Of a stretch of 64,000 nt of DNA, positions 4,877 through 53,264 are shown piece after piece. The position numbers and the translations under genes were made by a program. The DNA is from an uncultured Candidatus Saccharibacteria bacterium (lineage in GTDB: Bacteria > Patescibacteriota > Minisyncoccia > Phycocordibacterales > UBA9973): contig CAZWJU010000002.1 in the NCBI GenBank assembly GCA_964634365.1, positions 103,150 through 167,149 of the forward strand. Reading direction: 5' to 3'. The notes under the pieces are model-generated. The model did not search any database and was not told the origin of the DNA. It worked only from the letters and a program-made list of their open reading frames with translations. Position 1 is the first letter of the stretch. Every line of letters starts with the position of its first letter.

Positions 4877-5731
4877 ACACACAAACTCTACCCCGTCGCT
4901 TTGGCAATTTATTGTCCCATCATACATCGTCACAAAATACGGAATATTAAAACTTGTGAGTCTGTCTGTTACATCTTTTTTAGGATGACCATATCTGTTA
5001 TTTAGACCAGCCGATATGATTGCAAGTTTTGGGCGAGCTTCTTCTAAAAGAGGCGTTCCTGTAGAAGTAGATGATCCGTGGTGTCCCACCTTCAATATAT
5101 CCGTACCAGACAAATCACTCCCAGATACTACAATACCCTCAGTCAGTTTAGTCCCATCTCCAGTAAATAAAACTGAAGTGTCATCATATACCAATCTGCC
5201 AACAAGAGAGCCGTCATTTGAAGACCATTTTGATACATCTCTGTCTGGAAATAAAATTTCAAAATATATATTTCTATTTTCGTCTAAAACAACACGGTCA
5301 CCCTTTTTGGCGATTATGTGTGGGATATTTTCATTTTTTATTTTATCTTCAAGCTCTTTGTACATACTTGTACTAGAGCTAGTACCAGCTTCTAAAACAG
5401 CACCAATTTTGTGACTATCGAGCAGTGCTAGAAAACCACTATAATGATCGAGGTCTGGATTGGTAACAACAATCACATCTATAGTCTTATCGCCATACGA
5501 CATAACTTCTGGTAACGCTCGCAAAATAGACTGATTTGGACCACCGTCGATTATCATCTGCTTGCCGTTTGGAGATTCGATATATATCGAATCTCCTTGC
5601 CCTATGTCTAAAAATGAAACCTTTAAAATATCACTCTCCTTCACAGGACTACTAATATAGGATTGTGACCAAACAACTGCACAAAATAAAAATAGGAGTG
5701 CAAATATGGTTAAAATCTGTCTATTTTTCAC
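4871..5731 (-). CDS. ComEC/Rec2-type metallo-beta-lactamase fold protein, stand-alone and secreted/anchored
   Basis: N-terminal TM. LDIGQGDSIYIE...IIDGG and ILKVGHHGSSTSTG motifs are typical of the ComEC C-terminal MBL domain. Confidence 0.75.
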   Translation of the reverse strand: MKNRQILTIFALLFLFCAVVWSQSYISSPVKESDILKVSFLDIGQGDSIYIESPNGKQMIIDGGPNQSILRALPEVMSYGDKTIDVIVVTNPDLDHYSGFLALLDSHKIGAVLEAGTSSSTSMYKELEDKIKNENIPHIIAKKGDRVVLDENRNIYFEILFPDRDVSKWSSNDGSLVGRLVYDDTSVLFTGDGTKLTEGIVVSGSDLSGTDILKVGHHGSSTSTGTPLLEEARPKLAIISAGLNNRYGHPKKDVTDRLTSFNIPYFVTMYDGTINCQSDGVEFVCK

Positions 5732-5804
5732 AGATTAAATTATAACAAAATCAATAAATCTGGATATGGTAGAATAAAAAGTATTAGCAATAAACCTAAA
5801 AAAT

Positions 5805-6389
5805 ATGTTTACACCAAAAACTTTCAATATTCCCGAGCTAAAAGGAATAAGTAAAAAAACTATCGATGAGCACATAAAACTCTACGAGGGGTATGTGAAG
5901 AATGCCAACGCGATAATAGAAAAAATGTCGACTATCGATAGTGAAAAAGATGCATATATCACAGGCGAACTTTTTCGCAGATTTAGTTTTGAATACAACG
6001 GTATGCGAAACCATGAAGTATATTTCTCATCCCTAGAAGCCGGATCAGTCACTTTTAACCCAGAAGGCAACTTAGGTAAAAGACTTGTCGAACTTTTCGG
6101 ATCATATGAGAACTTCGTAAAAGAATTCTCTGCACTTGCACTCACTCGTGGCATCGGCTGGGCGGTGCTATGGTATGACAGAAAAGAAGATAAGTTTCTT
6201 GCCTCATGGGTAGATGAACAACACCTTGGACAACTAAACGGCTGTGCGATGATACTAGGGCTCGACATGTGGGAGCACTCTTATGTTGCTGACTATCAAC
6301 CAAGTGGCAAAAAACAGTATGTTGCAGATTTCTTCACAAATCTAAATTGGAAAGTAATAGAGGAAAATTATTTGTCTGCAGTAAAATAA
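5805..6389 (+). CDS. Fe/Mn superoxide dismutase family protein. The first His motif is partly degenerate.
   Basis: 194 aa. C-terminal LGLDMWEHSYVADYQ corresponds to SOD DVWEHAYY, and GMRNHEVYF to the NHxxFW region. The HHxKHH block appears as DEHIKLY. Confidence 0.6.
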   Translation: MFTPKTFNIPELKGISKKTIDEHIKLYEGYVKNANAIIEKMSTIDSEKDAYITGELFRRFSFEYNGMRNHEVYFSSLEAGSVTFNPEGNLGKRLVELFGSYENFVKEFSALALTRGIGWAVLWYDRKEDKFLASWVDEQHLGQLNGCAMILGLDMWEHSYVADYQPSGKKQYVADFFTNLNWKVIEENYLSAVK

Positions 6390-6400
6390 AAATCTACAAA

Positions 6401-6428
6401 TCAAAAAACCGCTTGTTCACGCGGTTTT
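6401..6428. terminator. Rho-independent terminator after the SOD-like gene
   Basis: aaaaaaccgc-ttgttcac-gcggtttttt. Confidence 0.65.
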
Positions 6429-6467
6429 TTGTATATAGATATAAAATTTAAATAACTATCGACAAAT

Positions 6468-7115
6468 CTATTCCAACCCATCAAATCGAAGGGTCATGGT
6501 TGTGTGATCTTTGAAGATAACACTCACATCAGTCCCTGTTGGTTCGTGGATCATCGAAACATTGAAAGTATATCTTGAGTTGTCTCCTATGTACTCACTC
6601 CACTCTTCCCAAAGTAACTTGTTGGTATTGAAAATAGTTCTCTTTCCATCTTCGTACCAGTAAAATATATCTTTGTAGACGACAGTTTCTCCTGTGTCGG
6701 GCAAAGTGAGATAGAAATCTATATTGTGTAGATCAATAGTTGTTCCTGTTTCTTCTTCAATATACGGAATAATAGTCCGGCGAAATTTTGGTGCGATCTG
6801 GTGGTCAAATATCACTACACCGTCAGCACATTTGAGCGTACCGTCTGGATTGATAAATCTCTCTGGGTGCAAATAGTCGTCAGGTGTACCGTTACTACAA
6901 TCGCGACTAGTGTCTGCACTAGGCGCAGTATCTATTCCTTTTTCAGAAGTTATAATCTCAGCATTTTCAAAAGTTTGCTGAGACAGACTGTTTTTGTTTT
7001 TCTTAACAGAGATATTTTCATCAGAACCTCTAAACAAAACAAAGATCAAAACTAAGGCAAGAATACCTAGAAAGCCTGACAAAATTATTATTATTTTATT
7101 ATGAGAAATTTTCAT
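6468..7115 (-). CDS. Hypothetical membrane-anchored extracellular protein
   Basis: N-terminal TM helix followed by a hydrophilic Cys-containing domain. No recognisable motif. Confidence 0.5.
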   Translation of the reverse strand: MKISHNKIIIILSGFLGILALVLIFVLFRGSDENISVKKNKNSLSQQTFENAEIITSEKGIDTAPSADTSRDCSNGTPDDYLHPERFINPDGTLKCADGVVIFDHQIAPKFRRTIIPYIEEETGTTIDLHNIDFYLTLPDTGETVVYKDIFYWYEDGKRTIFNTNKLLWEEWSEYIGDNSRYTFNVSMIHEPTGTDVSVIFKDHTTMTLRFDGLE

Positions 7116-7117
7116 GT

Positions 7118-8218
7118 TTAACTATTGGTATTTATAAAGCTAATAACTTCATCGAGATAGCGCGCGAGAAGACCCCCGACATGGGCCAAATCTGACGCAA
7201 CATAAATATCACTAGGTACACCCACCACAGAAAGTTTCTGATCTAATGTTGTTGCTTGTATCGTTGGAACACTTCTATCCTTATCTCCATGAAGTATCAA
7301 AAATGGTGAGTCGCCACTTGTGATGTATGTCTCTGCAGATAATGCTTTATATTCATCTTCACATTCTGTACTTGGTACGGGCGAACAACCCACCTCGTTA
7401 CCAATAGAATTTTTGATTCCACCTGACATTGTATCTACAATAGATGCAACATAGCTTCCAGAAATATTTATAACACCAGCAATATTGCTGTTATATCCAT
7501 TGTTCCCACCGATAGTGCCTTCAAGTGTTGTATTTCCTTCTGTTACACCCATAAGTGAAGCGAGTACTCCACCTGCTGACTCACCTAACGTGAAAAATGC
7601 ATTTGGGTCTACATTGTAATCATTTGCATGCGCCTTCATATAGCGAGCAACTCCCTTGATATCGTTAAGTGGCGCCGGGAAAACAGCTGTACCAGAAAGT
7701 CTGTAATCTATAGCCACAACTGCAGTTCCATGTTTGGCGAGCATGAGGGCATCATCTGCAACGCCGTTTTTACTTCCACCCTTAAAACCTCCTCCGTGAA
7801 TATATAAAACCAAAGGTGTTGGATTAGAAACATTGTTTGGAGTATAGATATCAATTTTTAGATTCATTCCACTACCTGTTCCATACACAATATCTTTTTT
7901 GGTAGTAACAGAATAATCTTCACTATATGAAAGAGCTCCAGTAGCTGTAGAGCCGGAACCAGCAGAAATTCCAGAAGAATCGCTTGTTTGCGTATTGTTT
8001 CCAGTATCTGTATCAGTATCTTCTTCCGTTGTGCTATCTACCTCTTCTGTGTTTTTATAATTATCTATTTTCTTCTCTATTTGTCTTGCAATTTTTGCAT
8101 TTGTTACAAAAAGGGCAATTAGTATTCCAATAATTATTAAAAAAATAAAACCAACAATAGAGAGCTTAAGCTTCTTATTGCCTTCAGGGGTTTCTATATT
8201 AGGTGTTATGTTATCCAT
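7118..8218 (-). CDS. Membrane-anchored alpha/beta-hydrolase (esterase/lipase, Abhydrolase_3-like)
   Basis: LYIHGGGFKGG oxyanion-hole HGGG motif, GESAGG nucleophile elbow, and an N-terminal TM. Confidence 0.75.
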   Translation of the reverse strand: MDNITPNIETPEGNKKLKLSIVGFIFLIIIGILIALFVTNAKIARQIEKKIDNYKNTEEVDSTTEEDTDTDTGNNTQTSDSSGISAGSGSTATGALSYSEDYSVTTKKDIVYGTGSGMNLKIDIYTPNNVSNPTPLVLYIHGGGFKGGSKNGVADDALMLAKHGTAVVAIDYRLSGTAVFPAPLNDIKGVARYMKAHANDYNVDPNAFFTLGESAGGVLASLMGVTEGNTTLEGTIGGNNGYNSNIAGVINISGSYVASIVDTMSGGIKNSIGNEVGCSPVPSTECEDEYKALSAETYITSGDSPFLILHGDKDRSVPTIQATTLDQKLSVVGVPSDIYVASDLAHVGGLLARYLDEVISFINTNS

Positions 8219-8241: not shown

Positions 8242-9735
8242 TTAAAATATGCTCTTTCTATTTATATGCCAGCGGCGCACAAAAAAGAATATGAATGCGT
8301 ATATAAAAATCACAAACAAAAGAGAAAACCTGTTTATGGATATAGAAGAAAAAGGTATTTTCGCCCCAAAGCTAATAACAGAAAGTATAGTATTTAAAAT
8401 CACAGTACTTACAAGACCAAAAGGATAGGCTATAAATTGCCCGAAAAAACCCAAAACCCCTACCAAGAATCCCAAATACATCGCTAGTGGTATAAAAGGC
8501 AAGATAAGTATGTTTATAGGAAAAGATATTATAGACAGGTTCCCCATCGTATATACAATAAATGGCAAAGTTGCAATCTGCGCAGCTATAGTTGAGGCGA
8601 CGATTTCTCTAAACCAACCAAATCTTCTTTTATTTATAAAAGAGAACAAAATCTCAGTTATGGGAGTTATGTATATGATCCCGATAGTAGCTAGGAAAGA
8701 CAATTGAAAAGAAATATCGAAAATCAAAGTTTTTGGATTTACTATTACCATCAGAACTGCAGCCAAAACTAATCCACGATTTATATCATAATTTTTACCA
8801 CTAAAACGAGCGAGTATAACCAACAAAGCCATAATACCTGCTCTGACGGCAGTAGAAGTGGCACCACTCATCAGTACAAATAATGTTATGGATAAACCAC
8901 CAAAAGACAATGCTCCATAGCGAGACAAAAATAGAGTAAAAAATTTTTGAATTCCATTTGCAACTACAGATATGTTGTACCCAGAAAGTGCAACTATATG
9001 TATAGTGCCAGTTTTTACAAATTCATCACGAATATTACTAGGTAAACCAGAGCGTGCACCGAGTGTAATCCCGGACATAAAGGTGCTTGCGGGTGCAGGT
9101 ATTGCACTCTCAATATTTTTTATAATCCTATTCTTAAAATCAAACAATTTTTCTTGTAAAACGGAAGGCGCATCGTGATCTATCACTTCTACCTGACCTT
9201 TTTGTATTAAATAAAATATATTATCCTTACCTAAATACGATATGTAATCAAAGGTATTTCCTTGCTCAGTTTCAAAATTTGTAGGCGATTTTAAAACTCC
9301 TAAAACAGACACTGCATCTCCATATTCAAAAACAGGATAGAGATCTGTGGTTACTAAAATATTTGATTCCAAATCTTCTCCTGCCACCTCTACTGTCTGA
9401 ACTAAAATTTTCTGATTATTCTCTCTTCTGTCTGGCTCATCTACTATGGTTCCAAAAATTTCAACTCTCTCGTCCAAGTATGAGTCTAGATTTTTAAAAT
9501 AATGATTATTTTCATATATTTGAAATCTTAAAATTCCAAAAAACACAGACACGACTAATATAGAAAACAAAACAAAAATCTCTTTTGTATTTTTAAATAC
9601 AAAAGAGACGATCATTGAAACCACTGAAACGAGAACAAAAATAACCAACATATTTGCTGGTATCGACAAAAAAGATTCTATACCTACGCCTAAAATAAAA
9701 CCTAGTGTGACCGTGTAAAATAATCTATCGGGCAT
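8242..9735 (-). CDS. comEC: ComEC/Rec2 DNA internalisation channel protein (OB-fold DUF4131 + competence domain) without the lactamase domain
   Basis: Polytopic membrane protein. Competence-domain pattern: ...GTIHIVALSGYNISVV...ARFSGKNYDINRGL... Confidence 0.7.
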   Translation of the reverse strand: MPDRLFYTVTLGFILGVGIESFLSIPANMLVIFVLVSVVSMIVSFVFKNTKEIFVLFSILVVSVFFGILRFQIYENNHYFKNLDSYLDERVEIFGTIVDEPDRRENNQKILVQTVEVAGEDLESNILVTTDLYPVFEYGDAVSVLGVLKSPTNFETEQGNTFDYISYLGKDNIFYLIQKGQVEVIDHDAPSVLQEKLFDFKNRIIKNIESAIPAPASTFMSGITLGARSGLPSNIRDEFVKTGTIHIVALSGYNISVVANGIQKFFTLFLSRYGALSFGGLSITLFVLMSGATSTAVRAGIMALLVILARFSGKNYDINRGLVLAAVLMVIVNPKTLIFDISFQLSFLATIGIIYITPITEILFSFINKRRFGWFREIVASTIAAQIATLPFIVYTMGNLSIISFPINILILPFIPLAMYLGFLVGVLGFFGQFIAYPFGLVSTVILNTILSVISFGAKIPFSSISINRFSLLFVIFIYAFIFFFVRRWHINRKSIF

Positions 9736-15442: not shown

Positions 15443-16684
15443 CTATTTTCCATCAACTGACCAGTGCCAAGGTTCTTTACTAAAATTTATCAAAGTAGGA
15501 TTGTTGCTTTTGTTTGAAAGCCATACAAAGCATGTATTTGATTGACTTGTTATTCCACCTCCGTCACATCTAAAATCAATCGCGAGACCACTTTCATGAT
15601 TTGAATAACCAGGATAGGCTGTTGGTGGCTTACAAATTGCATTTTCATTGTAAATATTTGCTTCTCCACAATTCTCAGCCCGCAGAGCAACTTGCTCTTC
15701 ATGTGTTCTAAATCCACCACCAGATAGTTTTACTCCTTCGCTCCAAGCTTTGTTAATCATAGTCTGCATCGCGGCTGATATTCTTTGACATACATACATA
15801 TTACCACCACTTGTCTCAATATTAACAATTCCCTCAGGACATTGTGCTACGGCACCGGCTGGTATAGGACCAGTATCGTTGAGCTCAAATGGATTATATG
15901 TTTCTTCTTCGTATGCAAGATCAACACCTTTTATCCCAAGATGTAGATTTATAAGGTTCGGATTTATTGTGTTCAATATCAAGTAACTAGCCAACGCAAG
16001 CAGTAAGCCACCGAGTGCATAAGTAATCCGTTCCCTACCCTCACTTTTACCAGAAAGTGCATCTGTAGACATATACTGAATACCTCCTAGCACCATCATG
16101 ATCACAGCCAGTGCTCCAGCAAATCCAATAGTAAATTTTATAATTATATTCAAATAATCTCCTAAGTCGGTGTTTGCTGGATTAACTTCAGATATTCCAG
16201 GTATAGGTGCGAGCAAGCAATATGAATCGCTACCACTTGCACAATTAGTACTTGAAGTTGTTGTTCCAGAACCACTAAGATCGAGAGCATCTTTCCCATC
16301 AACAACGTCAACAGCTACGAGAGGTGTAGTGAAAGAATCTACAGTAGTGAGTTTTATTGTATTATCAGCCCCATCTACAAACTGATAATAGTATGTAGTG
16401 TTTGGTGTGAGCCCTGTTATAGAACCGGAAAAAGATCCATCAGCAGATGGTGTAATAGTAGGACCTGAGTTTGTTAGTGATGTAGAAGTTGTACCCCATT
16501 TAGGAACCATAGAGAAACCAGGCTCTGCTTCTACAACATCCCCTCCAAAAGAAAGAGAAGTTGGGTTTAGGTCTATTTCTCCAGAATCAATAAAAACATC
16601 GACAGCATGTGCACTCTTTGAATAAAGCAATCCTAGAAATAAAATCGCGGATAAGAATATTTTATATTTTTTAAAAATGATCAT
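15443..16684 (-). CDS. Secreted FN3 domain + VirB2/TrbC-like two-helix hydrophobic hairpin + C-terminal peptidase M15 (VanY/LAS-type) cell-wall hydrolase domain
   Basis: Signal peptide. FN3-like GLTPNTTYYYQF. Hairpin IGFAGALAVIMMVLGGIQYMS...TYALGGLLLALASYLIL. M15 region GGFRTHEEQ...YSNHESGLAIDF (SxHxxGxAxD). Confidence 0.6.
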   Translation of the reverse strand: MIIFKKYKIFLSAILFLGLLYSKSAHAVDVFIDSGEIDLNPTSLSFGGDVVEAEPGFSMVPKWGTTSTSLTNSGPTITPSADGSFSGSITGLTPNTTYYYQFVDGADNTIKLTTVDSFTTPLVAVDVVDGKDALDLSGSGTTTSSTNCASGSDSYCLLAPIPGISEVNPANTDLGDYLNIIIKFTIGFAGALAVIMMVLGGIQYMSTDALSGKSEGRERITYALGGLLLALASYLILNTINPNLINLHLGIKGVDLAYEEETYNPFELNDTGPIPAGAVAQCPEGIVNIETSGGNMYVCQRISAAMQTMINKAWSEGVKLSGGGFRTHEEQVALRAENCGEANIYNENAICKPPTAYPGYSNHESGLAIDFRCDGGGITSQSNTCFVWLSNKSNNPTLINFSKEPWHWSVDGK

Positions 16685-17726: not shown

Positions 17727-19553
17727 CTAACTAGAAGCTTCCTCCAAATCCTTTTTAGCCTTTTGTATAGCCAGAACCTGGGATGGATCAGAAGTTATAA
17801 TCTGGTCTTCGGTATATGAAGCAATAACCTTTATAGCTACGTGCTTCAATCCAGCAAAGAATATACCCTCTCCCACTCCACTCTCTAGGAGCAAATACTT
17901 TTCTTCATCGGTTAAGTTAAAAGTCTTCTGTAATACATCTATTGAACTAGGAGATTGTTTCAAGAGTAGCTGGATGGACGAGTTTGTAACAATCGGTAGT
18001 CCATATGGACTCTTCAAGAAGTCTCCTACGTCTTGAGTAATAGTCATCAATCCTAAATAGTATTTTCTTCCACGTTTTGCGATTGAGTACAGGAAAGATG
18101 CTGTGTCTTCACTTTTCATCATCCACCAAGCCTCGTCCACCACAAGCAATCTCTTGCGAAGATTCTTACGCACAGCGTTCCAGATATAGTGAGTAACTAT
18201 ATACATTGCTACAGGCTTAAGTTCGTCTTCCATATCGCGCACTGAAAACACCACAAACTTTTTGTTGATATCTACGTTTGAAGGTTGGTTCAAAAATCCT
18301 GCCCAGCTACCTCGAGTATATTTTTGCAACTTCTGAACTATAGACTCTGTGTTCTCCATACCAGAGAGAACCATTTCAAAGTCAGACAAAAGTGGTGGCT
18401 CAATATTTGAAAAGTCAGAATTTGCAGTGATATCTTTGATAGCATAAGTTTCAGTTATTGCTCTGTCGATAATCGCATCTTCTTCTGGAGTAAGACCTCC
18501 GAGCATTATACGGAAAAGACCTACTAGATTGATTGTGTTTGATCTTAGGACATCACTAGCGGTTTCATCTTCGCGAGGTATAGGTAAGTCAAAAGGGTTT
18601 ATGTGGTGGTCAGATGATAGAGATATATTGAAATATCTTCCCCCTACTGCTTCTGCCAAATATTCGTATTCACGCTCTGGGTCGATTACAATCACCTCTG
18701 TATCAAACATGAGTGTACGGATAAGCTCTAGTTTTGTTGCATAAGATTTACCAGAACCAGACTTAGCAAAAGTAATAGAGTTGTAGTTTTCTAGAGAAAA
18801 GCGATCAAATATAACTAGACTAGAATTGTGACGGTTCACGCCGTACAAAATCCCCTTGTCACTAGTTAGGTCAAAAGAAACAAACGGAAAAATACTAGAA
18901 AGAGGTTCGGAGTTTAATTTCTGATGAACACCGAGTAGGTCTGTACCTATTGGAATCACACTCTTGAAGCCTTCTTCTTGTTGAAATAGTGCTGGCTTTA
19001 GATACACGAGCTTAGCATCCAGGATTGATTTGATTTCATTTTCTAATTTGAAAAGTTCGTCTTCGTTGTCAGCGTACATGGTTATATACAAACCAACATC
19101 GAACATCTTTTCTTGGGCTTGTTGTAGACTATCGCGCAAAGACTCAAGATCTCTGTAAGCAGTATCAAGCATCGGATCACGCACAAGACCGCGACTCTCT
19201 CGCATATTTATCTGACTCTGCACTTCAGCAACCTTTTTCTGAAATTGACGCAATATAGTAGCTGTATCAATCGGATGCACGAAAAATGAAACGTCGAATA
19301 TTTTGTCTAGATTGATTATAGGAGCAAACCAGTTGTCTGTTAGATATCTTGGATAAGATATAACAAAGAAAGTTCTCGCTATTTTATCTCCCAGGTGCAA
19401 AGCTTTTGGTTCAATTTGAAGTGCTGAAGGTGCAATAACATCCTGAAGTTCGAGTGTTGCAGCTTCATATATCTCGCCTGGCAAAACAGGCAAAACTTGA
19501 TGTTCGTTCGCCTTCTTGCTTGATTTACCTAAAATTTTATCTAAAAGTCCCAT
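17727..19553 (-). CDS. virB4: VirB4/TraC/PrgJ-type conjugative ATPase, C-terminal ATPase portion
   Basis: Walker A FAKSGSGKSYATK, Walker B LLVVDEAWWMM, and TITQDVGDF. 608 aa. Confidence 0.75.
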   Translation of the reverse strand: MGLLDKILGKSSKKANEHQVLPVLPGEIYEAATLELQDVIAPSALQIEPKALHLGDKIARTFFVISYPRYLTDNWFAPIINLDKIFDVSFFVHPIDTATILRQFQKKVAEVQSQINMRESRGLVRDPMLDTAYRDLESLRDSLQQAQEKMFDVGLYITMYADNEDELFKLENEIKSILDAKLVYLKPALFQQEEGFKSVIPIGTDLLGVHQKLNSEPLSSIFPFVSFDLTSDKGILYGVNRHNSSLVIFDRFSLENYNSITFAKSGSGKSYATKLELIRTLMFDTEVIVIDPEREYEYLAEAVGGRYFNISLSSDHHINPFDLPIPREDETASDVLRSNTINLVGLFRIMLGGLTPEEDAIIDRAITETYAIKDITANSDFSNIEPPLLSDFEMVLSGMENTESIVQKLQKYTRGSWAGFLNQPSNVDINKKFVVFSVRDMEDELKPVAMYIVTHYIWNAVRKNLRKRLLVVDEAWWMMKSEDTASFLYSIAKRGRKYYLGLMTITQDVGDFLKSPYGLPIVTNSSIQLLLKQSPSSIDVLQKTFNLTDEEKYLLLESGVGEGIFFAGLKHVAIKVIASYTEDQIITSDPSQVLAIQKAKKDLEEASS

Positions 19554-19555
19554 AA

Positions 19556-20200
19556 TTATATTTTTATATTTTGTTCAGTCTCACCTGGGTTAAATACCTT
19601 ATAAAAAAGCTCTATAACCTCTTCGGTTCCAAGTTTTGTACTACGAACACCGCAACGATTTAAACCCTGCTGCACAACAGATATACGTTGTTCAAGCTGA
19701 GTTCTCTTTTCTTCGAATAGAGAGAGGGCGTCGTTTTTCTGGCTAACTTTGTCGCCGGCGCCAGTAAGGTCAGAAAAAGCTTTTGTTATACTACCCTGTT
19801 TTGATAGGGGCGCTGCAGAATAAGGTACTACTATAAAAAAGTTTTTGGTCATTATGTTAACTTGCTCTGTGAAAGATCTTATGAATTCTATGTATTCTTT
19901 TGTCTGCACCTTGAGCAGAGGCTCAACCTGATCCTTCATGCGATTTTCGAGAGTAAGCAGATACGGCTTTATATCCAGTCTTCGTGACTGGACGATGATC
20001 TGTGTTGAAAATTCTAGGGAGTTTAGAAATGTTTGAAATTGCATTATTATAGCCTGCTGTTCGTCACTTGATTTTAAAGATAGGTTTACAGAAGAAGCCA
20101 TGATCACAGCACGCAAACCTCCGTCTTTAAGCACAACAACACCATCCCGAACTTCTTTGATCGGTACGAATGATTGTGTTGAGCGTGCGTTGATTGCCAT
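19556..20200 (-). CDS. virB4: VirB4 N-terminal domain encoded as a separate ORF. Split or frameshifted VirB4.
   Basis: FVPIKEVRDGVVVLKDGGLRAVIMASSVNL..SDEQQAIIMQFQTFLNSLEFSTQIIVQSRRLD matches the N-terminus of Gram-positive VirB4 proteins. The stop TAA is 2 nt before the ATG of the ATPase ORF, in another frame. Confidence 0.65.
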   Translation of the reverse strand: MAINARSTQSFVPIKEVRDGVVVLKDGGLRAVIMASSVNLSLKSSDEQQAIIMQFQTFLNSLEFSTQIIVQSRRLDIKPYLLTLENRMKDQVEPLLKVQTKEYIEFIRSFTEQVNIMTKNFFIVVPYSAAPLSKQGSITKAFSDLTGAGDKVSQKNDALSLFEEKRTQLEQRISVVQQGLNRCGVRSTKLGTEEVIELFYKVFNPGETEQNIKI

Positions 20201-20222: not shown

Positions 20223-20627
20223 TTACTTTTTAGAGTTCACATCGAGCACATCTAGACTCCAAGATATGTCTTTGAGCTTACTTTCTGATAATCTGGGTAC
20301 AATCGGTGCAGGGAGTACATCTTCACTCTTTTTAATTTCCTTTTTATTTGGATCTTTTTTCCAAATATACAATTTACCTTGAACGAGAAATCTGATATAG
20401 GATTCTAGTATTGCAATAAAAGGCTTGTTGTTGACTTTATAAAAAGTCAGAGCAAGAGAGAGACCTGCTATAGGAACAATAAGTAAAACCGCAAAGAAAA
20501 ATGGCAGTAATTTGTAAATAATAAAACAAATACCTGCTCCACCAGCTAGGTAGACAAATTGCTTGAAAGTAAAAGGTCCAAATATTTTGTCTTCAATATC
20601 AATAAATTGAGGGACACTAAATCGCAT
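20223..20627 (-). CDS. PrgI/TcpE-like small two-TM protein (VirB3 analogue)
   Basis: MRFSVPQFIDIEDKIFGPFTFKQFVYLAGGAGICFIIY fits the PrgI-family N-terminus. Two TM helices. Immediately upstream of VirB4. Confidence 0.6.
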   Translation of the reverse strand: MRFSVPQFIDIEDKIFGPFTFKQFVYLAGGAGICFIIYKLLPFFFAVLLIVPIAGLSLALTFYKVNNKPFIAILESYIRFLVQGKLYIWKKDPNKKEIKKSEDVLPAPIVPRLSESKLKDISWSLDVLDVNSKK

Positions 20628-21647: not shown

Positions 21648-24600
21648 TTAACTAGATAATTTTTCTTGAGCTTCAGACTTATTGTTTTGTTGCTGAGCTT
21701 TATCGTTAAACAATGTCTTATAAGAAGCAATTTCTCCTTTCGTTTTATCATATTGCGACTTAACTTGTGCATATTGTTGAGCTGTTATAGTGCCGTCTGC
21801 AACATCTTTTTCTGCTTTTTTCAATTGTGCTTCGTATATAGCCAAGCTAGACTGACCTTCATTCATAGCGAATTCAACATGATCAAACGATACATCTGCA
21901 GCAGTAATTTGATTTCCTGCATTCGCTGGATCCAAATTCCAAGTATCTGCAATATCTTGTAAATGTTGGTCAATTTTCTTGAGCTCATAATTAGCCCGTG
22001 TAAGCTGATCTTCTGCTTTCTTTTTCTCTTTTCCACTAATAGGTTTATTTTCTTCACCAGCTTTTTTACGTGTATCGGTAGTAAATTGTTTTTCAGATCT
22101 AGACATATCAGTTCTAGCTTCAATATTTTGTGCCTTTCTCCATTCCACTTCATTGAATACTTGACCTTGTGCGAGAGCTTGTTCACGTGCTTCGTTTCGT
22201 TTTTGTGTGTATCCATTGCCATATTCAACTTCATTTGCCTGATCATGCAATCTCTCTGAATTAACCTCTTTTGCAGTTTTTTCTTTTGCTCTACCGTTGA
22301 TAGTTTGTACTTGTCCAGAAGCATCTGTGTATGTAGTAGAAGTTTGACCTCTTTCAAATCTCTTTCTGAAATCAACTTCATCAAGATTAGGATTTTGTTT
22401 TCTTTCTTCTTCAAGAGCCTTTTCAAGATCAGCCTTCCATGCACCTGCCTTTTTATCTTGCTGGTTAGCCTCATATCCTTTGAGCAAGTATGTATCTGCT
22501 TTATCTGATTTTTCTTTTGTTTTACGTTCGTTTGCACCTTTTGCTCCACCTTCAGAACTTAGATCAAAGCGACCTGTTCCTCCAACCATATTGCCAAGAT
22601 TTTGTGCAAATTTTGCACTACCCTTTGTATCCATATCCCAACCTGTATTTTTACCAAATGCAGCACCAGCCTTTGTCTTTCGAAAATCAAATGAACTTGC
22701 TGCACCGTAGTTTGCAAGAGCAAGTTTTCTCTGTGCACTTTTATCTCCTGCCGCAGCTGCTGCCTGAAGTTCTGGATTAGCTGCTTGTCTAGCTGCATAA
22801 GCACCAACAGTTCCTCGCATAGCAAGTGCTGCTCCGCCAGTTGCTGCTCCCACCGCAAAACCTCCGACTTTATTCATAACTGACATAGATTGTTGTCCAA
22901 TTTCCCCAGACAAATCTATCGCTAGTTTTTCTGCCTTCATAAGAAGTGTGTAGACAATTGCAAAAGGAAGTAACACATACAAAAGATTTGCTCCGGCAGA
23001 TGCAGTGTCAGATATAGCAAGAGTTTTTAAATCCAAAAACAAAACTATCAAATACAAAAAGAATAAAAATACCGGTGCCAGAAATGCAGTTTTAATAAGC
23101 TCGCTAGACCAGTTAGACCAACCAACATTTTTCCAACTCTTCATACCCGGGACTATCATAGATATGAAAGCCATAGGAGAAAAGATCATGGCAACCATCA
23201 GAGATATAACTCTACCAACAAACAAAATACCAATCTTCAGAAACATCATTATCAAGAGGACGTTCATTACGACAGCTACTAAAGTAACAATGATATACAT
23301 ACCGATATCATTGTTTGCGTCTATTTCACTCTTTGAAAAAAGTGTTTGTGGGTTAAACTGACTAACCAAAGCTCCTGAAATAGTTTTCTCGTCGCCAACA
23401 CCATCCCCTCCACCGACCGATATAGTACTGTACATCAAGTTGGCTAAGATATTTGAAGTATCGACAACTATTTTAGTAAAAAATAAACTGAAGTTTATAA
23501 GTAGAGCCACAACAACAAGTGTGCCGATCATCTTCTTTGCATCAACAGAAGGTAGTCTGAGAATCGTTCCTATGGCTATGTATAAGAGTATGAAAATAAA
23601 TACTATGTTTGATATATCGCGCACAAGTGACCAACCTTGTGATATAAATTCAGATTCACTATATGTAGAGCTCTGTATTGAAAAGTGCATAAACCAGTCC
23701 AAAAACATAGCTGCGAGCCCAGCCAAGAACGCTGTTGGTTTATAGAAAACATAATAAAGTAAGTTTGCAAAACATCCAGGAAAATTTATACCAGTTGGCA
23801 CACCAAGATCATTAAACCTTATACATTCTGGTCCATTATCTGAATTTTCTGTTGCTGTTGTGCCCGTAGAAACAAGCTCAACAGTATCTCCAGTTGTTGC
23901 AGATTCATCTACACCACTAGCATCAGTTGTAAATTTAATAAATTTACTATATCCAGTTTCAGTACCTCCTGCTGAATGAAAAGATATGCGAGCATAGTAG
24001 GTCTGACCTGGCTCTAATCCATTGTTTATTATCTTAATCTTTGTATCAGCCTGGGTTGTTGCTTCAAAATTTATAAATGGGTCTAATTTTGTCTTTAAAA
24101 ATCTATCTGACAAATCTGGGGCAAGCGGTGGCGTGTCAGTACCCTCAAGCGCACCTCCTCCTTCATTTGTCCCTGTACCAATTTCTAAAAACATACCTCG
24201 ATCAGAACCGTAAACCGCACCACTAAAACTCTCAAGTGGTATTCCATCATCTTTTGTATTATATATAGCAGCCCAAGAACCAATATCTTCTATGTCATCA
24301 CCTATTATTGTATTACCGTCTCTATCTGCAGCTGCATTTGTACCACCAGCCATAGTAAAGCCGAAATTTACATCAACCCAGTTTGAACCGACATCACTTA
24401 AAGAGAGTGTTACATTGTTTGTTATGAATAAATCTCTAGATCCCAAAAATTCAGTACCAAGCAAACCAGCAGTCTGCCCTTCGTAGAGACCAGTAGGCCA
24501 TTCATCATCTAATCCTGTAGAATTAGCATTTGCTGGAAATAGGTCAGTTAAATCATTTGGATCAAAATCTGCCAATACGGTCCCTTTTGGCAAAAACAAA

Positions 24601-24659
24601 AAGGAAAAAGAGCTCATCACTATAGCGAGGAGTAGTGTCGATGCGCAAATATTCTTCAT
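21648..24659 (-). CDS. VirB6/TrbL-like polytopic membrane protein with an N-terminal secreted FN3-like domain and a long C-terminal charged/coiled-coil tail. Start at the internal MKNICAS.
   Basis: Signal peptide. FN3-like GLEPGQTYYARISF. About 8 hydrophobic helices. C-terminal 400 aa Lys/Glu/Gln/Ala-rich. Confidence 0.55.
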   Translation of the reverse strand: MKNICASTLLLAIVMSSFSFLFLPKGTVLADFDPNDLTDLFPANANSTGLDDEWPTGLYEGQTAGLLGTEFLGSRDLFITNNVTLSLSDVGSNWVDVNFGFTMAGGTNAAADRDGNTIIGDDIEDIGSWAAIYNTKDDGIPLESFSGAVYGSDRGMFLEIGTGTNEGGGALEGTDTPPLAPDLSDRFLKTKLDPFINFEATTQADTKIKIINNGLEPGQTYYARISFHSAGGTETGYSKFIKFTTDASGVDESATTGDTVELVSTGTTATENSDNGPECIRFNDLGVPTGINFPGCFANLLYYVFYKPTAFLAGLAAMFLDWFMHFSIQSSTYSESEFISQGWSLVRDISNIVFIFILLYIAIGTILRLPSVDAKKMIGTLVVVALLINFSLFFTKIVVDTSNILANLMYSTISVGGGDGVGDEKTISGALVSQFNPQTLFSKSEIDANNDIGMYIIVTLVAVVMNVLLIMMFLKIGILFVGRVISLMVAMIFSPMAFISMIVPGMKSWKNVGWSNWSSELIKTAFLAPVFLFFLYLIVLFLDLKTLAISDTASAGANLLYVLLPFAIVYTLLMKAEKLAIDLSGEIGQQSMSVMNKVGGFAVGAATGGAALAMRGTVGAYAARQAANPELQAAAAAGDKSAQRKLALANYGAASSFDFRKTKAGAAFGKNTGWDMDTKGSAKFAQNLGNMVGGTGRFDLSSEGGAKGANERKTKEKSDKADTYLLKGYEANQQDKKAGAWKADLEKALEEERKQNPNLDEVDFRKRFERGQTSTTYTDASGQVQTINGRAKEKTAKEVNSERLHDQANEVEYGNGYTQKRNEAREQALAQGQVFNEVEWRKAQNIEARTDMSRSEKQFTTDTRKKAGEENKPISGKEKKKAEDQLTRANYELKKIDQHLQDIADTWNLDPANAGNQITAADVSFDHVEFAMNEGQSSLAIYEAQLKKAEKDVADGTITAQQYAQVKSQYDKTKGEIASYKTLFNDKAQQQNNKSEAQEKLSS

Positions 24660-24750
24660 TCTTTTTGATATTTTTTGCACAATAATATTGTACGTATATT
24701 GTACCACGCAAATACACAGTAAATACAACAAAAAAAGTGAATTTCTATAG

Positions 24751-24786: not shown

Positions 24787-26901
24787 CTAAAAAGAATCAC
24801 CTGTATAATCACTTATTGTACCTCTATACCAACTACTACAATCGAATTCAAATTTTTGATCTGTGTTATAACCTCTTGTCTGTGTATATAGAGTACCCCA
24901 TGATGTTTCCCAACCACAAAATAAAGTTTGTCTTATATCGTCAGTTGCAATATGCCAAGCATCTGAATACATAGGCGCTGCTGCAAAGTCTAATACTTCT
25001 GATTTACACTGGGAAAATAGAGATTCTGGATTAACTGGATCAAATATATCGTAATCTTCGTTTTGATATTGCTTGAGCTCCGCATCTGCGTCTGCGATCG
25101 TGTCCGGGCGACCAATTTGTGATTTTATCGAAGTATATTGTGATGCCAATTTATTTTTAAGCTCTATGTTTTCTGGAGAATCTTCTACTGATGGATCTAT
25201 AGGTTTTGGGTGAGCTATGATACTAGCTTTTATGCTTTGAAGTAGGCCTAGAGTTCTAATCTTAGAAGATATCTTTGCATCAAGCGCTCCAATATCATCG
25301 TTGTATTTTGAAATTCTATTTACTTGATCATATATAAGTGGAGCAGATGGAATATTTTTGATTGGAAAATTAACATCTTCAAAAGGAAGCCCCCCTGTGC
25401 AACTTGATATATCTGACTGCGCTATCGCAGGAGCATCGCGTTCAGTTCCTGCTGTAAGCGCCAATTTTATATTTGATATGAGCTGAGACATGAAACCATC
25501 GAAACATTTTATTTGATCTTGAGCTTCGTCTCCATTTTCAGAATTGTTGTCTGATTTATTTTGGATCTTTTTTGATTCAAGTAAATATTGTTCACGCATT
25601 CTGGTAGTAAATTTATAATCTGGACCTGGTAGGCACTGATCTAGCTCCATAGTTTTTTGAGGAAAATCTCTAAGAATTTCTTTTGTATCCATCAATAAAT
25701 CAAACTCTGCTTGAGTATCTTCTATAGAAGTTTCAAGTAATTCACTTGGCACGCCAGTTAGCACTCCGCCTATATATACAGGAGAGGCTTCTAGGTCTAC
25801 AGTATCAACTGTATTCCACACAAAAGTATCGCCACTTGATTGGAAAGCTGAGTTATTACCTGGACCACCAGCAGTAGGATCTTCTGGATCGGCAGTAGCT
25901 ATGTTGCCTATAAGTTCTGTAATACCATTTGTAATAAGACCTGCAGCCAAATTTGAAACAGCATCGAGAATCGGACTTCCAGAACTAGCATCAGTAATCG
26001 CCTTTTGTAAAGGAGCTTCGACTGTTTGTTGTAGTTGTGCTGCGATCAGTTTACCAGGGGTAACAGTTTCGTATCTTGCACAATCGTCACTAGCATCAAA
26101 CTCTATATCACTACCGAGACTTATACTTAGACTATTCAAATACTCTTCCATGTCCTCTCCTATTGGTGCAAGACCAGATGCATCTACACCGTCTTTGTAT
26201 TGAACACATTTTTTCATAGAAAGAAAACCTCCACTTTGAGTAAGTTCTGTTTTAGTAGTACCCTGGACAGAATCTATTCTGCTTTCCAATTCCTCCGCAG
26301 ACCTCAAATACGCACCAACTGGATTGTTGGCATCATTTTGTGTGTAATCCATCCAAGCATCCCAGCCACCAACATTAAAATCATCTTCAGTAAAATCTTG
26401 CCAATTAGGTCCAATAGTTTCATCGAGAGAAAAATTCAACTTACTTTTAAAAGTATCACTATTTCCAGAAACCTGATCGGTGATCAAGTTCATTGATATG
26501 TTTCTAGCATAAGGAAAAGCACTCTCATCTGCACTAATTTCATTTACAAAAGCTTCAACTTGTTCATCTGCTACACTTTTGAAAAAACTTTTCTCGTCTC
26601 TTACAAAAAATGGGTCGCCCTTGAATCCAGTTGAACCCCAGTTTATAACCTGCTGAGTCATATTGAGTGCTACTTGTGAACCAATCTTCTTTAGCATTTT
26701 ACCCAAGACTGACTCATTGAACTCTTTGACTGTTGTTGCAGCAGTTTGAGCTGATTTTATAGCATTACCAATATTTACGGGTAGATTTGCAAGGTCTATT
26801 GTAGGCAATCCTGTAGCTTTGGCCTGATTGACATTAAAAACAAAAATAAAAGCCAGAACAAGAATTATTTTGCCGATTGATTTTAGATTCTTAGATTTCA
26901 T
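24787..26901 (-). CDS. Large secreted hypothetical protein in the T4SS-like cluster
   Basis: Signal peptide MKSKNLKSIGKIILVLAFIFVFNVNQAKA. 704 aa. No recognisable catalytic motif. Confidence 0.55.
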   Translation of the reverse strand: MKSKNLKSIGKIILVLAFIFVFNVNQAKATGLPTIDLANLPVNIGNAIKSAQTAATTVKEFNESVLGKMLKKIGSQVALNMTQQVINWGSTGFKGDPFFVRDEKSFFKSVADEQVEAFVNEISADESAFPYARNISMNLITDQVSGNSDTFKSKLNFSLDETIGPNWQDFTEDDFNVGGWDAWMDYTQNDANNPVGAYLRSAEELESRIDSVQGTTKTELTQSGGFLSMKKCVQYKDGVDASGLAPIGEDMEEYLNSLSISLGSDIEFDASDDCARYETVTPGKLIAAQLQQTVEAPLQKAITDASSGSPILDAVSNLAAGLITNGITELIGNIATADPEDPTAGGPGNNSAFQSSGDTFVWNTVDTVDLEASPVYIGGVLTGVPSELLETSIEDTQAEFDLLMDTKEILRDFPQKTMELDQCLPGPDYKFTTRMREQYLLESKKIQNKSDNNSENGDEAQDQIKCFDGFMSQLISNIKLALTAGTERDAPAIAQSDISSCTGGLPFEDVNFPIKNIPSAPLIYDQVNRISKYNDDIGALDAKISSKIRTLGLLQSIKASIIAHPKPIDPSVEDSPENIELKNKLASQYTSIKSQIGRPDTIADADAELKQYQNEDYDIFDPVNPESLFSQCKSEVLDFAAAPMYSDAWHIATDDIRQTLFCGWETSWGTLYTQTRGYNTDQKFEFDCSSWYRGTISDYTGDSF

Positions 26902-31411: not shown

Positions 31412-34400
31412 TTATTTTGCATTTTGTATCTCAGCTTTTTCCAACAATTCTATGTATTGTTGCAATCCCATACCAGACTGTGGAGGAATATCATATTTAT
31501 TTGCGATCTTTTCTATAGCATCCAACATTTTATTGATTGAATTTGTATCAGCTTTTGAAGCAGTTTCAATTATCTTTCCAGAAGCATCTTGGTAATTTCC
31601 ATCAAAATTTATTGAGTGATTAATATTACCCAATTCATCTGTTTCATATATTGAATCTGCTGGATAATTCTTCCAAATTTCCCATGTTCTTGTGTTAACA
31701 CCTTCAACAGAACTGTTATCTAGGTATTTATTTATGAAATCAGTAGTATTTTGTTGCACTTCTATAGATAGTTGGTCTGGAGTTACTTCTGGTGCATTTG
31801 GCGCACTTGCATCTACTGATACATCTGGTGTTTCAGGTGTATTTGCATCTGGGGCAGAAGCATCTATTGTTCCGCTACTGCCACCCATCTGACCTCCAGT
31901 ATTAGTATTTAAATCTATAAGCTTTCCTCCAGATAAAGGTGTGTTGTCTAGACCAGAAGCTCCCATTTGATTTTGGCCTATACCTGTAGCCGCATCAATA
32001 CTTCCACCCATCTGTCCAGAACCAGAATCTACTGTATCTGCAACACTTGGCTCTGCTTCTAGTGTTCCACCACTTTTTGTTCCGCGATAAATATACTCTG
32101 TATCATCTGGAGTTGCTTCAAACGGAGAACCTGCACTATGAGTTTCAATCAATTTTCCATCAATAAATTCTCTTACACCAAAACTTCCGTCTGGCATCTT
32201 TGTTATAACGTATGAAGAGTGTCCGATTGTGTCATATCCAAGTCGAAGTTCTGTACCATGGTTGAAATATCCTGTGCTGATAGCTAGTCTATGAGCTTCA
32301 CCTTGTGCAAAAGTATGCAAACTAGAACTTCCATCCCATCCCATAGAACGAGCCAAGTCTGGATCTGCTTCAATCTGACGTATAAACAAGTGCTCCACAC
32401 CATCTCCAGGTCGTACAGTAGCAAGAGGGTTTATAGTCTCAATCTCTGGCTCTGGTGGTGGAGTGTGATCAACAACTGGACCTGTGCTCTCGTTTGCATT
32501 TTCAGCAGCAAAGTGTCCCGCCATAAGACCCGCTCCAATGCTTGAACCCATTCTTATGCCGGCATTTATATAGCGATTTACTTTTTCCAATTTTTTCTTT
32601 TTCTTCAATTCTGCTCCAAATCTATCTTCTTGAGCCTTCAGCCATTCTTCGGAGAATTCTCCCTCTCCTGTGCCTTGGCCTAGTGCCTTTTTATTTTTCT
32701 CGAATCTCTTATCGATCTTTTTCTGACTAAAGAATAGACTTTTTAGTCCTATACCTGCCTCTCCTGCTAGTGCACCACCTACTACACGTGCACCAACACC
32801 AACCGCCACTCCTCCAAGTGCTGCCAAGCTTCCAGCAGAAAATGCTGCAACACCTGTTCCTATGGCAATAGATAGAGCTACGCGCTTGTATCTAGGTTTT
32901 ACCTTGCCGTACCATTGTAGTGCTTTTAGGAGCACACCCTGTTCTCTCTTTGGAAGTGCTTCTATTTTTTCCTGGGCTAGTATATCTCCTTCGTCTAAGA
33001 TAATTTTTCTAAACAAAGTACCGGATTTATATTCAGCGAGCGCTTGTGCCTTTTGTTCATCTGTTTGATTTGTCTTTTCAAGCCGAGCTTTTTCTCTTGC
33101 ATACAATTCATTACCAAAAATAACTTTAGCGCCTTCGTAATTCTTTTTAGCTTCGTTGTATGCTATTAGCTTTGCATTGTCTTCTGGTAAATCTTCGGTA
33201 GAAATCTTTTCACCGCCAATTTTTGCCCACATTTTTTGGAAGATATTACGCTTGCTCTTCATCACACTTTGTCGTTCAGAGAGCATCTCCTCATATGCTT
33301 TCATGTATGCATCACGTGAAGCATCAAGATTTTGTGAAGGTGACATTTCTTTCTCTTTATTCTTTTTCTCTGTATCTTCTAGAGGAGTTTCATCTTTTTC
33401 TTCTGACAAAATATCTTCTGGTTTTTGATCTTTAGATTCTTCTGTACCAGATGTTGATACAATCTCAAATGCATCACTTCTGAGCGCGCCCACCATCTCT
33501 CTTTCACTCTCTGATCTCTTTTCTCCAGTTTTGTTATTTTCAAATTCAAAAATCTTGTTACCATTTTTATCAGTAACAACTCTGATTAGAGTATATTCAT
33601 CTCCACTATCTCTACCTTTTACAACTGCTCCTATATCGAGGTCGTTTATAGTGTTTTTTATTGCTCCAATATCAATCTCTGGTCTTTCTATCTTTCCAAT
33701 ATTTTCACTTGGAGAATCTATAGCAACCTTGCCGAGACTAAACATACTAGCTAACTCTTTAGCAGAATATGTCATAACCTCACCATTTGCACGTTTTTCA
33801 AGTGTATATATTTTTTGTTTTTTCTTGCCTTTACCTTTGGTTTCAATATTTACAATATTTGCATATTCATCCTTTTCAACTCCGTATAAAACATCTCCTA
33901 TCGCAAGACCCTCTACACGAGCATCTGCACCCTCCTTTGTCATAGAAATGGAACTTTCTACTGGAGTTTTTTCTGTTTCTTCTTCTAAGTCAGGATTTTC
34001 AGTTTTATTAATTTCCCAAGTTTGACCAACAAGCTCTACGTTTGGATTCGATTCAAAAAACTTGCGAGTATCTTCTTCGTTCATAACTACAGGCGTCTTA
34101 CTCTTACCAGCTCTATATGAAACTTTTCCATTTTCTACTTTAACAATCTCGTATTTAAAAGAAGGTTTATCAGTATCTGCATACTCTTGGCCAGCCATAA
34201 TCTTTATTCCATTTCCAAGATCTAAAACATTTTCTGCTTTTATATCTTTATCTTCGTTTTTAGGTGCAGTTTTTTTGTTTATAGATTTTTTATCTATACC
34301 TAAACCAACTTTTCCAATCGCTCTTGCATAAAAAAGCTCTTTATCATTGTGAGAAGACCCATCGTCCAGATTGAAAGTTCTTACACCTCTTTTGCTTGTT

Positions 34401-34756
34401 GTGATACTTTGCACGATTCTTGTCTCTTTTGTCTGATTGAAATATAGAGGAGTGCCTTCTGTGATCTTGTCCAAAAATTTATTGGCTTCTTCGCGCACAG
34501 ACTCAGGTATAGCTTCTCTATCCTGTGTAGGCTTATCATCTTTTGCTTTTGTCTTTGCAGTAGACCTTGCTGAAGGTTTTTTACCAGACCCCGCTTTTGG
34601 TTCTGATTTTTTATCCTTTTCTAAAGCTCCAAGTATTTTATTTTTTAGATCACCCAACCCAGCTGAACTTTTTTCTATATCAACCTCAAGTTTTTTTGCT
34701 TGTTCCAAAAGCTCTTCATCAGTTAGTTTTTTTATTTCTGGCTCTTTTTCACTCAT
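31412..34756 (-). CDS. Very large hypothetical protein (1114 aa). Charged N-terminal half, a Gly/Ala-rich TM segment, and a GGQMGGS-repeat C-terminal region.
   Basis: Long uninterrupted ORF. Hydrophobic block ALSIAIGTGVAAFSAGSLAALGGVAVGVGARVVGGALAG. No catalytic motif recognised. Confidence 0.6.
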   Translation of the reverse strand: MSEKEPEIKKLTDEELLEQAKKLEVDIEKSSAGLGDLKNKILGALEKDKKSEPKAGSGKKPSARSTAKTKAKDDKPTQDREAIPESVREEANKFLDKITEGTPLYFNQTKETRIVQSITTSKRGVRTFNLDDGSSHNDKELFYARAIGKVGLGIDKKSINKKTAPKNEDKDIKAENVLDLGNGIKIMAGQEYADTDKPSFKYEIVKVENGKVSYRAGKSKTPVVMNEEDTRKFFESNPNVELVGQTWEINKTENPDLEEETEKTPVESSISMTKEGADARVEGLAIGDVLYGVEKDEYANIVNIETKGKGKKKQKIYTLEKRANGEVMTYSAKELASMFSLGKVAIDSPSENIGKIERPEIDIGAIKNTINDLDIGAVVKGRDSGDEYTLIRVVTDKNGNKIFEFENNKTGEKRSESEREMVGALRSDAFEIVSTSGTEESKDQKPEDILSEEKDETPLEDTEKKNKEKEMSPSQNLDASRDAYMKAYEEMLSERQSVMKSKRNIFQKMWAKIGGEKISTEDLPEDNAKLIAYNEAKKNYEGAKVIFGNELYAREKARLEKTNQTDEQKAQALAEYKSGTLFRKIILDEGDILAQEKIEALPKREQGVLLKALQWYGKVKPRYKRVALSIAIGTGVAAFSAGSLAALGGVAVGVGARVVGGALAGEAGIGLKSLFFSQKKIDKRFEKNKKALGQGTGEGEFSEEWLKAQEDRFGAELKKKKKLEKVNRYINAGIRMGSSIGAGLMAGHFAAENANESTGPVVDHTPPPEPEIETINPLATVRPGDGVEHLFIRQIEADPDLARSMGWDGSSSLHTFAQGEAHRLAISTGYFNHGTELRLGYDTIGHSSYVITKMPDGSFGVREFIDGKLIETHSAGSPFEATPDDTEYIYRGTKSGGTLEAEPSVADTVDSGSGQMGGSIDAATGIGQNQMGASGLDNTPLSGGKLIDLNTNTGGQMGGSSGTIDASAPDANTPETPDVSVDASAPNAPEVTPDQLSIEVQQNTTDFINKYLDNSSVEGVNTRTWEIWKNYPADSIYETDELGNINHSINFDGNYQDASGKIIETASKADTNSINKMLDAIEKIANKYDIPPQSGMGLQQYIELLEKAEIQNAK

Positions 34757-50818: not shown

Positions 50819-50821
50819 ATT

Positions 50822-51154: not shown

Positions 51155-51273
51155 CCTAGTTTTTGAGCTTATTTTAAATAGATTTATGGTGTGGATAACT
51201 AGCTAGACATTTGACATAATCTCTGCTCTAATGTGTTATATAGTGTTTTTTTGAAAAACGAAAATCGTTAAAT

Positions 51274-53228: not shown

Positions 53229-53235
53229 TCTATTT

Positions 53236-53264
53236 GCGCAATACGAAGCTTTGTGGTAATATGT
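53236..53264 (+). promoter_or_regulatory. Candidate sigma70-like promoter upstream of nusA
   Basis: ttgcgc - 17 nt - taatat. Confidence 0.3.

Follow-up and report, generated by a model that had tools for sequence, protein, structure and literature searches.

The closest described counterparts of the locus studied here are the TrsD-VirB4 gene pairs of Patescibacteria. The locus lies in a 64,000-nucleotide stretch of DNA from an uncultured Candidatus Saccharibacteria bacterium (GenBank assembly GCA_964634365.1, contig CAZWJU010000002.1, positions 103,150 to 167,149), which we call the window throughout. It consists of two adjacent open reading frames (ORFs) on the minus strand that together correspond to one VirB4-family ATPase, a small upstream one (the N-ORF) and a larger one with the ATPase motifs (the C-ORF). 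Quinonero-Coronel et al. (Microb Genom 2025, PMC12102498) describe TrsD as remotely homologous to the N-terminus of VirB4; of the components of the type IV secretion system (T4SS) that they recovered in Patescibacteria it was the most abundant, with 2,272 homologues in 2,221 assemblies. Among these homologues 1,664 of 2,272 are associated with VirB4, and the TrsD homologue that adjoins VirB4 in the cultured species Southlakia epibionticum is listed as essential. The published pairs come from the same lineage as ours, are chromosomal, and likewise place a stand-alone homologue of the VirB4 N-terminus by virB4 and a PrgI/VirB3-like gene; judged by the part of the article on which we draw, nothing of substance separates them from the pair in the window. 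That part of the article gives TrsD no function, lists it as a component and not as a split VirB4, and describes neither the breakpoint nor the variation in spacers. Because it reports TrsD next to VirB4, the two-gene arrangement counts as already described. The phrase 'split VirB4' was not found in the literature searched. The resemblance of TrsD to the VirB4 N-terminus is cited from PMC12102498 only, as the word 'TrsD' is absent from the main text of Guglielmini et al. 2014 (PMC4027160).

A second described system is that of the staphylococcal plasmids pSK41 and pGO1, with TrsD/TraD and TrsE/TraE of the mating-pair formation class MPF-FATA. In Staphylococcus aureus pSK41 a small membrane protein is followed by trsD (227 aa), a 14-nt spacer, a 672-aa ATPase (TrsE), a membrane protein and a CHAP hydrolase. 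Genes in the window follow a parallel order, with a PrgI-like protein, the small subunit, the ATPase, a single-pass protein of 344 aa and a VanY-type peptidase. Residues 13-576 of the C-ORF align end to end with residues 7-617 of TrsE (E 3e-34), and since the two ATPase chains thus start at one and the same place in the VirB4 fold, the two systems share a breakpoint. A further likeness is the match of the N-ORF to the TrsD/TraD model, which has an E-value of 8.5e-9 but falls below the model's cut-off. The sequences are nevertheless very distant, the ATPases being 23% identical, and pSK41 differs in being a conjugative plasmid with a relaxase and VirD4. Family scans, which covered part of the ORFs in the window, gave no hit to either of these two.

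The single-chain VirB4/TraC/CD1110 ATPases, for example TrwK of R388 (PDB 7O41) and the protein in PDB 4AG5, form the third point of comparison. The locus resembles them in collinearity, in its P-loop motifs and in the fold of the N-ORF product. It differs in that the chain is interrupted after about residue 200, and in that the C-ORF starts with a conserved extension of about 35 residues that is unaligned in a fused relative.

From these comparisons and the evidence below we conclude with high confidence that the locus is a normal, conserved two-gene VirB4 in a Paceibacteria (Patescibacteria/Candidate Phyla Radiation) chromosome, within a T4SS cluster of the Gram-positive type. Neither a frameshift pseudogene nor an indel of the assembly nor programmed frameshifting accounts for the break. 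The arrangement is real, conserved and already known.

One VirB4 in two reading frames

The first-pass annotation, made from the letters of the window alone, had described a stop codon, two further nucleotides and a start codon in a different frame at 19540-19570, between two ORFs adding up to the length of one VirB4. It left three explanations standing: a VirB4 genuinely made as two polypeptides, a frameshift pseudogene, and a sequencing or assembly indel. Its description of the junction is accurate. The minus strand reads GAA CAA AAT ATA AAA ATA TAA TT ATG GGA CTT, and the ORF table gives 214 aa for the N-ORF and 608 aa for the C-ORF, 822 aa in sum (for coordinates see Table 1), with the two jointly collinear with full-length VirB4. 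The frame of the C-ORF is -1 relative to that of the N-ORF and, followed upstream, is closed by a TGA at 19577-19575. The sequence TAA-TT-ATG is an ordinary tight gene boundary of a compact genome with many very short spacers: of the window's 31 same-strand spacers, 9 do not exceed 5 nt, and three besides the junction are exactly 2 nt long. The 121 nt around the junction are identical in two Logan assemblies that come from separate sequencing runs (SRR12487045 and SRR12486993).

The claim that the larger ORF encodes an ATPase with Walker A and B motifs holds. Its translation contains AKSGSGKSYA (Walker A, GSGKS) and LLVVDEAWW (Walker B, VVDEAW), and it scores 378.8 bits against the NCBIfam model conju_CD1110 (NF045971; E 5e-113), above the curated cut-off of 325. 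The Pfam family P-loop_TraG matches residues 254-556 (E 3.8e-26), the C-terminal domain of Thermoanaerobacter VirB4 (PDB 4AG5) matches residues 232-588 (E 2e-41), and residues 258-562 were aligned to residues 446-741 of R388 TrwK. The CD1110 model is covered by the C-ORF at positions 183-733 of 752 only, while positions 2-147 fall to the N-ORF, so that no single polypeptide covers the whole model.

The small ORF was labelled the VirB4 N-terminal domain in the first-pass annotation, and this needs narrowing. The homology does begin at the start of VirB4, with matches to positions 2-147 of 752 in CD1110, 101-285 of 894 in the mycoplasma model VirB4_plasma (E 3.8e-13) and 53-221 of 852 in TrbE. 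However, the small ORF is the first ~200 residues (about 190-215) of VirB4, roughly the first half of the N-terminal domain, and not the whole of it; the remainder of the domain sits in the C-ORF at residues ~36-250. The precomputed Pfam data list PF26593 (TraC-like) for the identical protein and for all 120 listed N-ORF homologues. A local hmmscan gave no PF26593 match in the N-ORF, and it also missed the fused relative P0240, which carries PF26593 in the precomputed data, so the model is apparently absent locally. Searching solved structures with the N-ORF sequence returned nothing significant, and the link to TrwK came only from a fold search. For this search an AlphaFold2 model was built from 51 homologues, in which 65 alignment columns are invariant. 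Its top 14 PDB matches are all TrwK/VirB4 chains (probability 0.96-1.00, template modelling (TM) score ~0.4), and no other PDB entry was matched at high probability.

The two ORFs are collinear with the fused relative P0240 (797 aa). Residues 1-210 of the N-ORF align with its residues 1-214 at 38% identity, and residues 36-601 of the C-ORF with its residues 230-796 at 56% identity. Between the aligned halves P0240 has a linker of about 15 residues, and no segment is duplicated or missing.

Conservation of the split in relatives

We scanned for relatives with one genome per species. The scan returned 80 loci with ATPases 77-86% identical to ours, labelled mainly as Paceibacteria or Nomurabacteria metagenome-assembled genomes, with some labelled Saccharibacteria or simply 'bacterium'. 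Of these, 78 could be analysed, having both genes on the same strand and inside the fetched DNA. The two genes are separate in 78/78 of them, the small gene with its own stop and the ATPase gene with its own ATG. The spacer ranges from 1 to 497 nt (median 7) and is 10 nt or shorter in 41/78; the relative frame is +1 in 33 loci, +2 in 23 and 0 in 22; and the small gene stops with TAA in 59, TAG in 16 and TGA in 3. No single frameshift or indel could give such a pattern, given that spacers, frames and stops all vary. The nearest relatives, whose small proteins are 91% and 83% identical to ours, are split as well, with a spacer of 1 nt, so the frame relation differs even there. In a comparison of orthologues such as the first-pass annotation had called for, relatives thus have the same two-ORF arrangement with starts and stops of their own, which indicates a genuine split.

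The start of the ATPase gene is itself conserved. In all 78 loci it is an ATG, and the products share the N-terminal motif M-G/S-I/L-F-D/S-x-L-F-G-K; in 64/78 a stop closes the C frame within 60 nt upstream of this ATG. In the window the decapeptide is encoded within the first 35 ATPase codons (19449-19553, minus strand), inside the stretch of ~35 residues that is unaligned with P0240. In the split ATPases this conserved peptide might act as a helix for docking or for membrane binding that is peculiar to the split form.

The stand-alone form also dominates protein databases. In the best 120 clusters of N-ORF homologues all proteins are 209-236 aa long, and of the best 150 representatives at 50% identity, drawn from 1.8 billion proteins, 148 stand alone (116-443 aa) and two are fused, P0240 and P0270 (898 aa). 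The N-ORF, 214 aa long and 2 nt upstream of the 608-aa ATPase gene, is of this stand-alone kind. Taken together, the 78 split relatives, the dominance of the stand-alone form, the identical independent junctions, the precedent of pSK41 and the published pairs bear out the suggestion of a VirB4 made as two polypeptides.

Both forms occur on plasmids. A tblastn search with the small protein gave about 100 plasmid records, mostly megaplasmids of Bacillus, Clostridium and Geobacillus with some haloarchaeal ones, and the matches usually lie on a short 'hypothetical protein'. On a Pontibacillus plasmid a 274-aa protein overlaps the start of the gene for a 621-aa 'VirB4-like ATPase, CD1110 family', which is followed by a peptidoglycan endopeptidase; on C. 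perfringens pJFP838A the order is PrgI, a 312-aa protein and a 641-aa DUF87 ATPase; and on a Myxococcus plasmid the two are fused (858 aa). A haloarchaeal plasmid (Haloglomus, L084:3986-7953) encodes a 541-aa protein that opens with an N-module-like sequence and then a 781-aa DUF87 ATPase, so a two-gene arrangement with a different partition may exist in Archaea.

Two chains or other explanations

Under the two-gene reading, VirB4 is encoded as a TrsD-like protein of ~214 aa, equivalent to the first ~200 residues, and a protein of ~608 aa with the rest of the N-terminal domain and the P-loop motor. To judge from the collinearity with fused VirB4, the two products would associate non-covalently and rebuild a VirB4-like protomer, which may dock on the PrgI/VirB3-like membrane protein encoded just upstream. 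The ATPase gene would probably be translated by termination at the TAA and reinitiation at the ATG, as the 2-nt spacer and the lack of a Shine-Dalgarno-like sequence suggest. The translational coupling proposed in the first-pass annotation is plausible for this spacer, but it is not universal. It cannot be general or obligatory in the family, because there are loci with long spacers (up to 497 nt), four with inserted genes and one (L011) with an inversion. Shine-Dalgarno motifs are rare before both genes, being present upstream of them in 7 and 8 of the 78 loci, and are for this reason uninformative on coupling.

Several points weigh against the two-gene reading or its details. Spacers exceed 100 nt in 8/78 loci, four of which hold an inserted gene, and in L011 the small gene is inverted. 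The run of five A residues just before the stop could in principle let the ribosome slip by -1 and join the two frames. Binding between the two proteins, and the expression of both, we infer from the collinearity. The structural model of the N-ORF is only of moderate quality, with a predicted local distance difference test (pLDDT) of 68 and a TM score of ~0.4 to TrwK. The N-ORF reaches 35.5 bits at positions 16-145 of 201 in the NCBIfam TrsD/TraD model (NF041427), far under the curated cut-off of 200 bits. Similarly, an hhalign comparison of the N-ORF alignment with pSK41 TrsD was insignificant (probability 2.5%), although with a shallow alignment (effective number of sequences, Neff, 1.9) and a template of one sequence this result neither favours nor excludes orthology. 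Given the sub-cut-off score and the insignificant hhalign result, orthology with staphylococcal TrsD is not established. What is established is only common homology to the VirB4 N-terminus and a common breakpoint.

The junction could be mistaken for damage. If one A had been lost from a run of six before the stop, a single 822-aa virB4 would have been broken: ATA AAA ATA TAA TT ATG holds a run of five, a single added A gives the reading N I K N I I M G, no stop interrupts the C frame from position 19574 on, and fused VirB4 relatives do exist (P0240 and P0270). We regard this explanation as extremely improbable. All 78 related loci are split, with varied spacers and frame relations, as are the relatives at 91% and 83% identity with their 1-nt spacer. 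Two assemblies of independent read sets agree at the junction, the C-ORF has a conserved start codon and N-terminal motif, and both halves are conserved as a whole, with the 65 invariant columns of the N-ORF and the 77-86% identity of the C-ORF across loci. A frameshift pseudogene is accordingly rejected, close relatives having no uninterrupted gene and the conserved halves no sign of relaxed constraint. An assembly indel is ruled out by the identical junction in two assemblies together with the split genes in all relatives. Both of these alternatives in the first-pass annotation are contradicted. The same run of A residues raises the idea of a programmed -1 frameshift on A_AAA_A, by which some fused VirB4 would be made beside a separate N product. 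A tRNA-Lys could slip from the AAA at 19564-19562 to the AAA at 19565-19563, and the slipped frame, open for 8 codons before the ATG, passes through N I I M G L and on into the ATPase ORF. Yet A AAA ATA departs from the canonical heptamer X XXY YYZ, and a run of five or more A residues is present in the last 15 nt of the N gene in only 8/78 loci. With frame relations mixed, most loci would need another shift or none. The downstream RNA folds no better than shuffled sequence (minimum free energy -15 kcal/mol, z = -1.2, 22 of 200 shuffles as good), and the C-ORF has a conserved ATG of its own. A programmed shift at this run, which has neither a canonical heptamer nor conservation nor downstream structure, is rejected, and we give it next to no credence. 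The homopolymer or slippery motif that the first-pass annotation had suggested looking for is thus present as an A5 run, but not as a canonical slippery heptamer.

A different kind of explanation accepts the two genes and makes the small ORF an independent accessory protein of VirB4-N descent, with a role of its own, such as regulating or recruiting the ATPase in another and possibly sub-stoichiometric ratio, and not a detached domain in a fixed ratio to it. The small protein evolves faster than the ATPase (50-69% against 77-86% identity in the same genomes), its gene can be separated from the ATPase gene by an inserted gene or an inversion, and the split C-ORFs carry the N-terminal decapeptide that is absent from the fused relative. 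On the other hand, the collinearity with fused VirB4 is complete, with nothing duplicated or missing, so that without the small protein a portion of the VirB4 N-terminal fold would be missing from the ATPase subunit. In 77/78 loci, moreover, the two genes are neighbours, and in 41 they lie at most 10 nt apart. We consider an accessory role unlikely; of the rival explanations it alone is mildly novel. Also quite doubtful is the notion that the split is functionally exploited, with the separate N module and the M-G-I-F-D-K-L-F-G-K peptide, which only split ATPase subunits carry at their start, giving a module-to-motor ratio other than 1:1 or a regulated assembly on PrgI/VirB3, in a secretion system on which the epibiotic lifestyle depends.

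The main value of the two-gene reading is for annotation. The junction should not be flagged as a pseudogene or an assembly error, and the 214-aa 'hypothetical protein' is better named a TrsD-like VirB4 N-terminal-module protein. In these ultra-small bacteria, as in some Gram-positive plasmids, a two-gene VirB4 is the normal state. The motor would work as two chains with the breakpoint of the staphylococcal pSK41-type plasmids, and this shared breakpoint speaks for the published derivation of the system from monoderm conjugation machinery.

Neighbouring genes and further observations

The features of the window are collected in Table 1. The PrgI-like gene is the first of a trio with the N-subunit and the ATPase. 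Its product has two hydrophobic, transmembrane-like segments at residues 24 and 43, and a PrgI-like gene also lies upstream of the pair in the inspected loci L085-L089 and L082, and of the fused gene in L090. Downstream of the ATPase gene, the 344-aa protein has no family match in Pfam or NCBIfam. Its gene is probably in the same operon as the ATPase gene and, in position only, corresponds to the membrane protein after trsE in pSK41. The VanY-type protein may be a cell-wall-remodelling partner of the secretion system, a candidacy suggested by the peptidoglycan hydrolases that come after the ATPase in the Pontibacillus plasmid and in pSK41.

Table 1. Features of the window discussed in the text, with positions counted from its first nucleotide
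Feature	Position	Strand	Length (aa)	Remarks
ComEC	8242-9735	-		
VanY-type D-Ala-D-Ala carboxypeptidase-domain protein	15443-16684	-	413	Pfam VanY 1.6e-9
Protein with one N-terminal hydrophobic segment	16689-17723	-	344	3 nt downstream of ATPase gene
VirB4-family ATPase subunit (C-ORF)	17727-19553	-	608	Rest of N-terminal domain and RecA-like P-loop domain
Junction	19551-19558	-		TAA 19558-19556, TT spacer 19555-19554, ATG 19553-19551
TrsD-like stand-alone protein (N-ORF)	19556-20200	-	214	Homologous to first ~200 residues of VirB4
PrgI/VirB3-like membrane protein	20223-20627	-	134	Pfam PrgI 1.1e-9, above cut-off
Polytopic membrane protein	21648-24731	-	1027	~9 hydrophobic segments; directly precedes secretion genes in same string
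Large ORF	24787-26901	-	704	
Large ORF	31412-34756	-	1114	
Large ORF	34784-36700	-	638	
PilC (type IV pilus)	44445-45662	-		
PilB (type IV pilus)	45675-47432	-		
Protein ending in Por_Secre_tail domain	51274-52566	+	430	E 1.3e-11

The 1027-aa polytopic membrane protein is, by position only, a candidate for a VirB6-like channel. It has no Pfam or NCBIfam match, and L085, L086 and L089 have the same large gene ahead of the trio. It is also the first of four large minus-strand ORFs in the window, none of which has a Pfam match; the first two, which were compared with NCBIfam as well, have no match there either. The cluster is taken to be chromosomal because housekeeping genes surround it (RecJ, RNase H, KsgA, a UvrD-type helicase, PGK, NusA and trigger factor). 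The competence channel ComEC and the type IV pilus proteins PilC and PilB are encoded in the window too, and beside the secretion cluster they match the published set of envelope machines of these bacteria.

Some observations concern the relatives. P0240 is encoded at L090:544-2937 (see also L090:5301-6665), adjoining a PrgI-like gene, rnpA and yidC, about 2.4 kb from dnaA/dnaN. This location fits the published remark that the secretion cluster of Patescibacteria is often near the replication origin. In four loci (L020:2975-3419, L041:5504-6000, L062:5515-6000 and L070:1498-1978) a spacer of 445-497 nt holds a gene for a protein of 123-132 aa. A family scan of three of the four products gave matches to PF05635, the family of 23S rRNA-intervening-sequence proteins, with E-values from 2e-19 to 2e-38, and the fourth product, that of L070, looks like the other three. 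The inserts of L041 and L062 are flanked by inverted repeats of 27-33 nt, the left one overlapping a hairpin that spans the stop codon of the small gene. The insert looks like a small cassette, bounded by inverted repeats, that has arrived at the same intergenic site, apparently repeatedly. In L011 a full-length TrsD-like gene (5288-5923, minus strand) diverges from the ATPase gene (6001-7821, plus strand), and with both genes intact this illustrates that the pair can be uncoupled by inversion.

Two further features lie on the far side of the window. The Por_Secre_tail domain at the end of the 430-aa protein is a type IX sorting signal, which is unexpected in a monoderm Patescibacteria genome, where the type IX system should be absent. 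Within 50800-56500 the gene orientation flips from minus to plus at ~51 kb and the GC skew is positive for 52-56 kb only, a change that could be a local inversion or a replication landmark.

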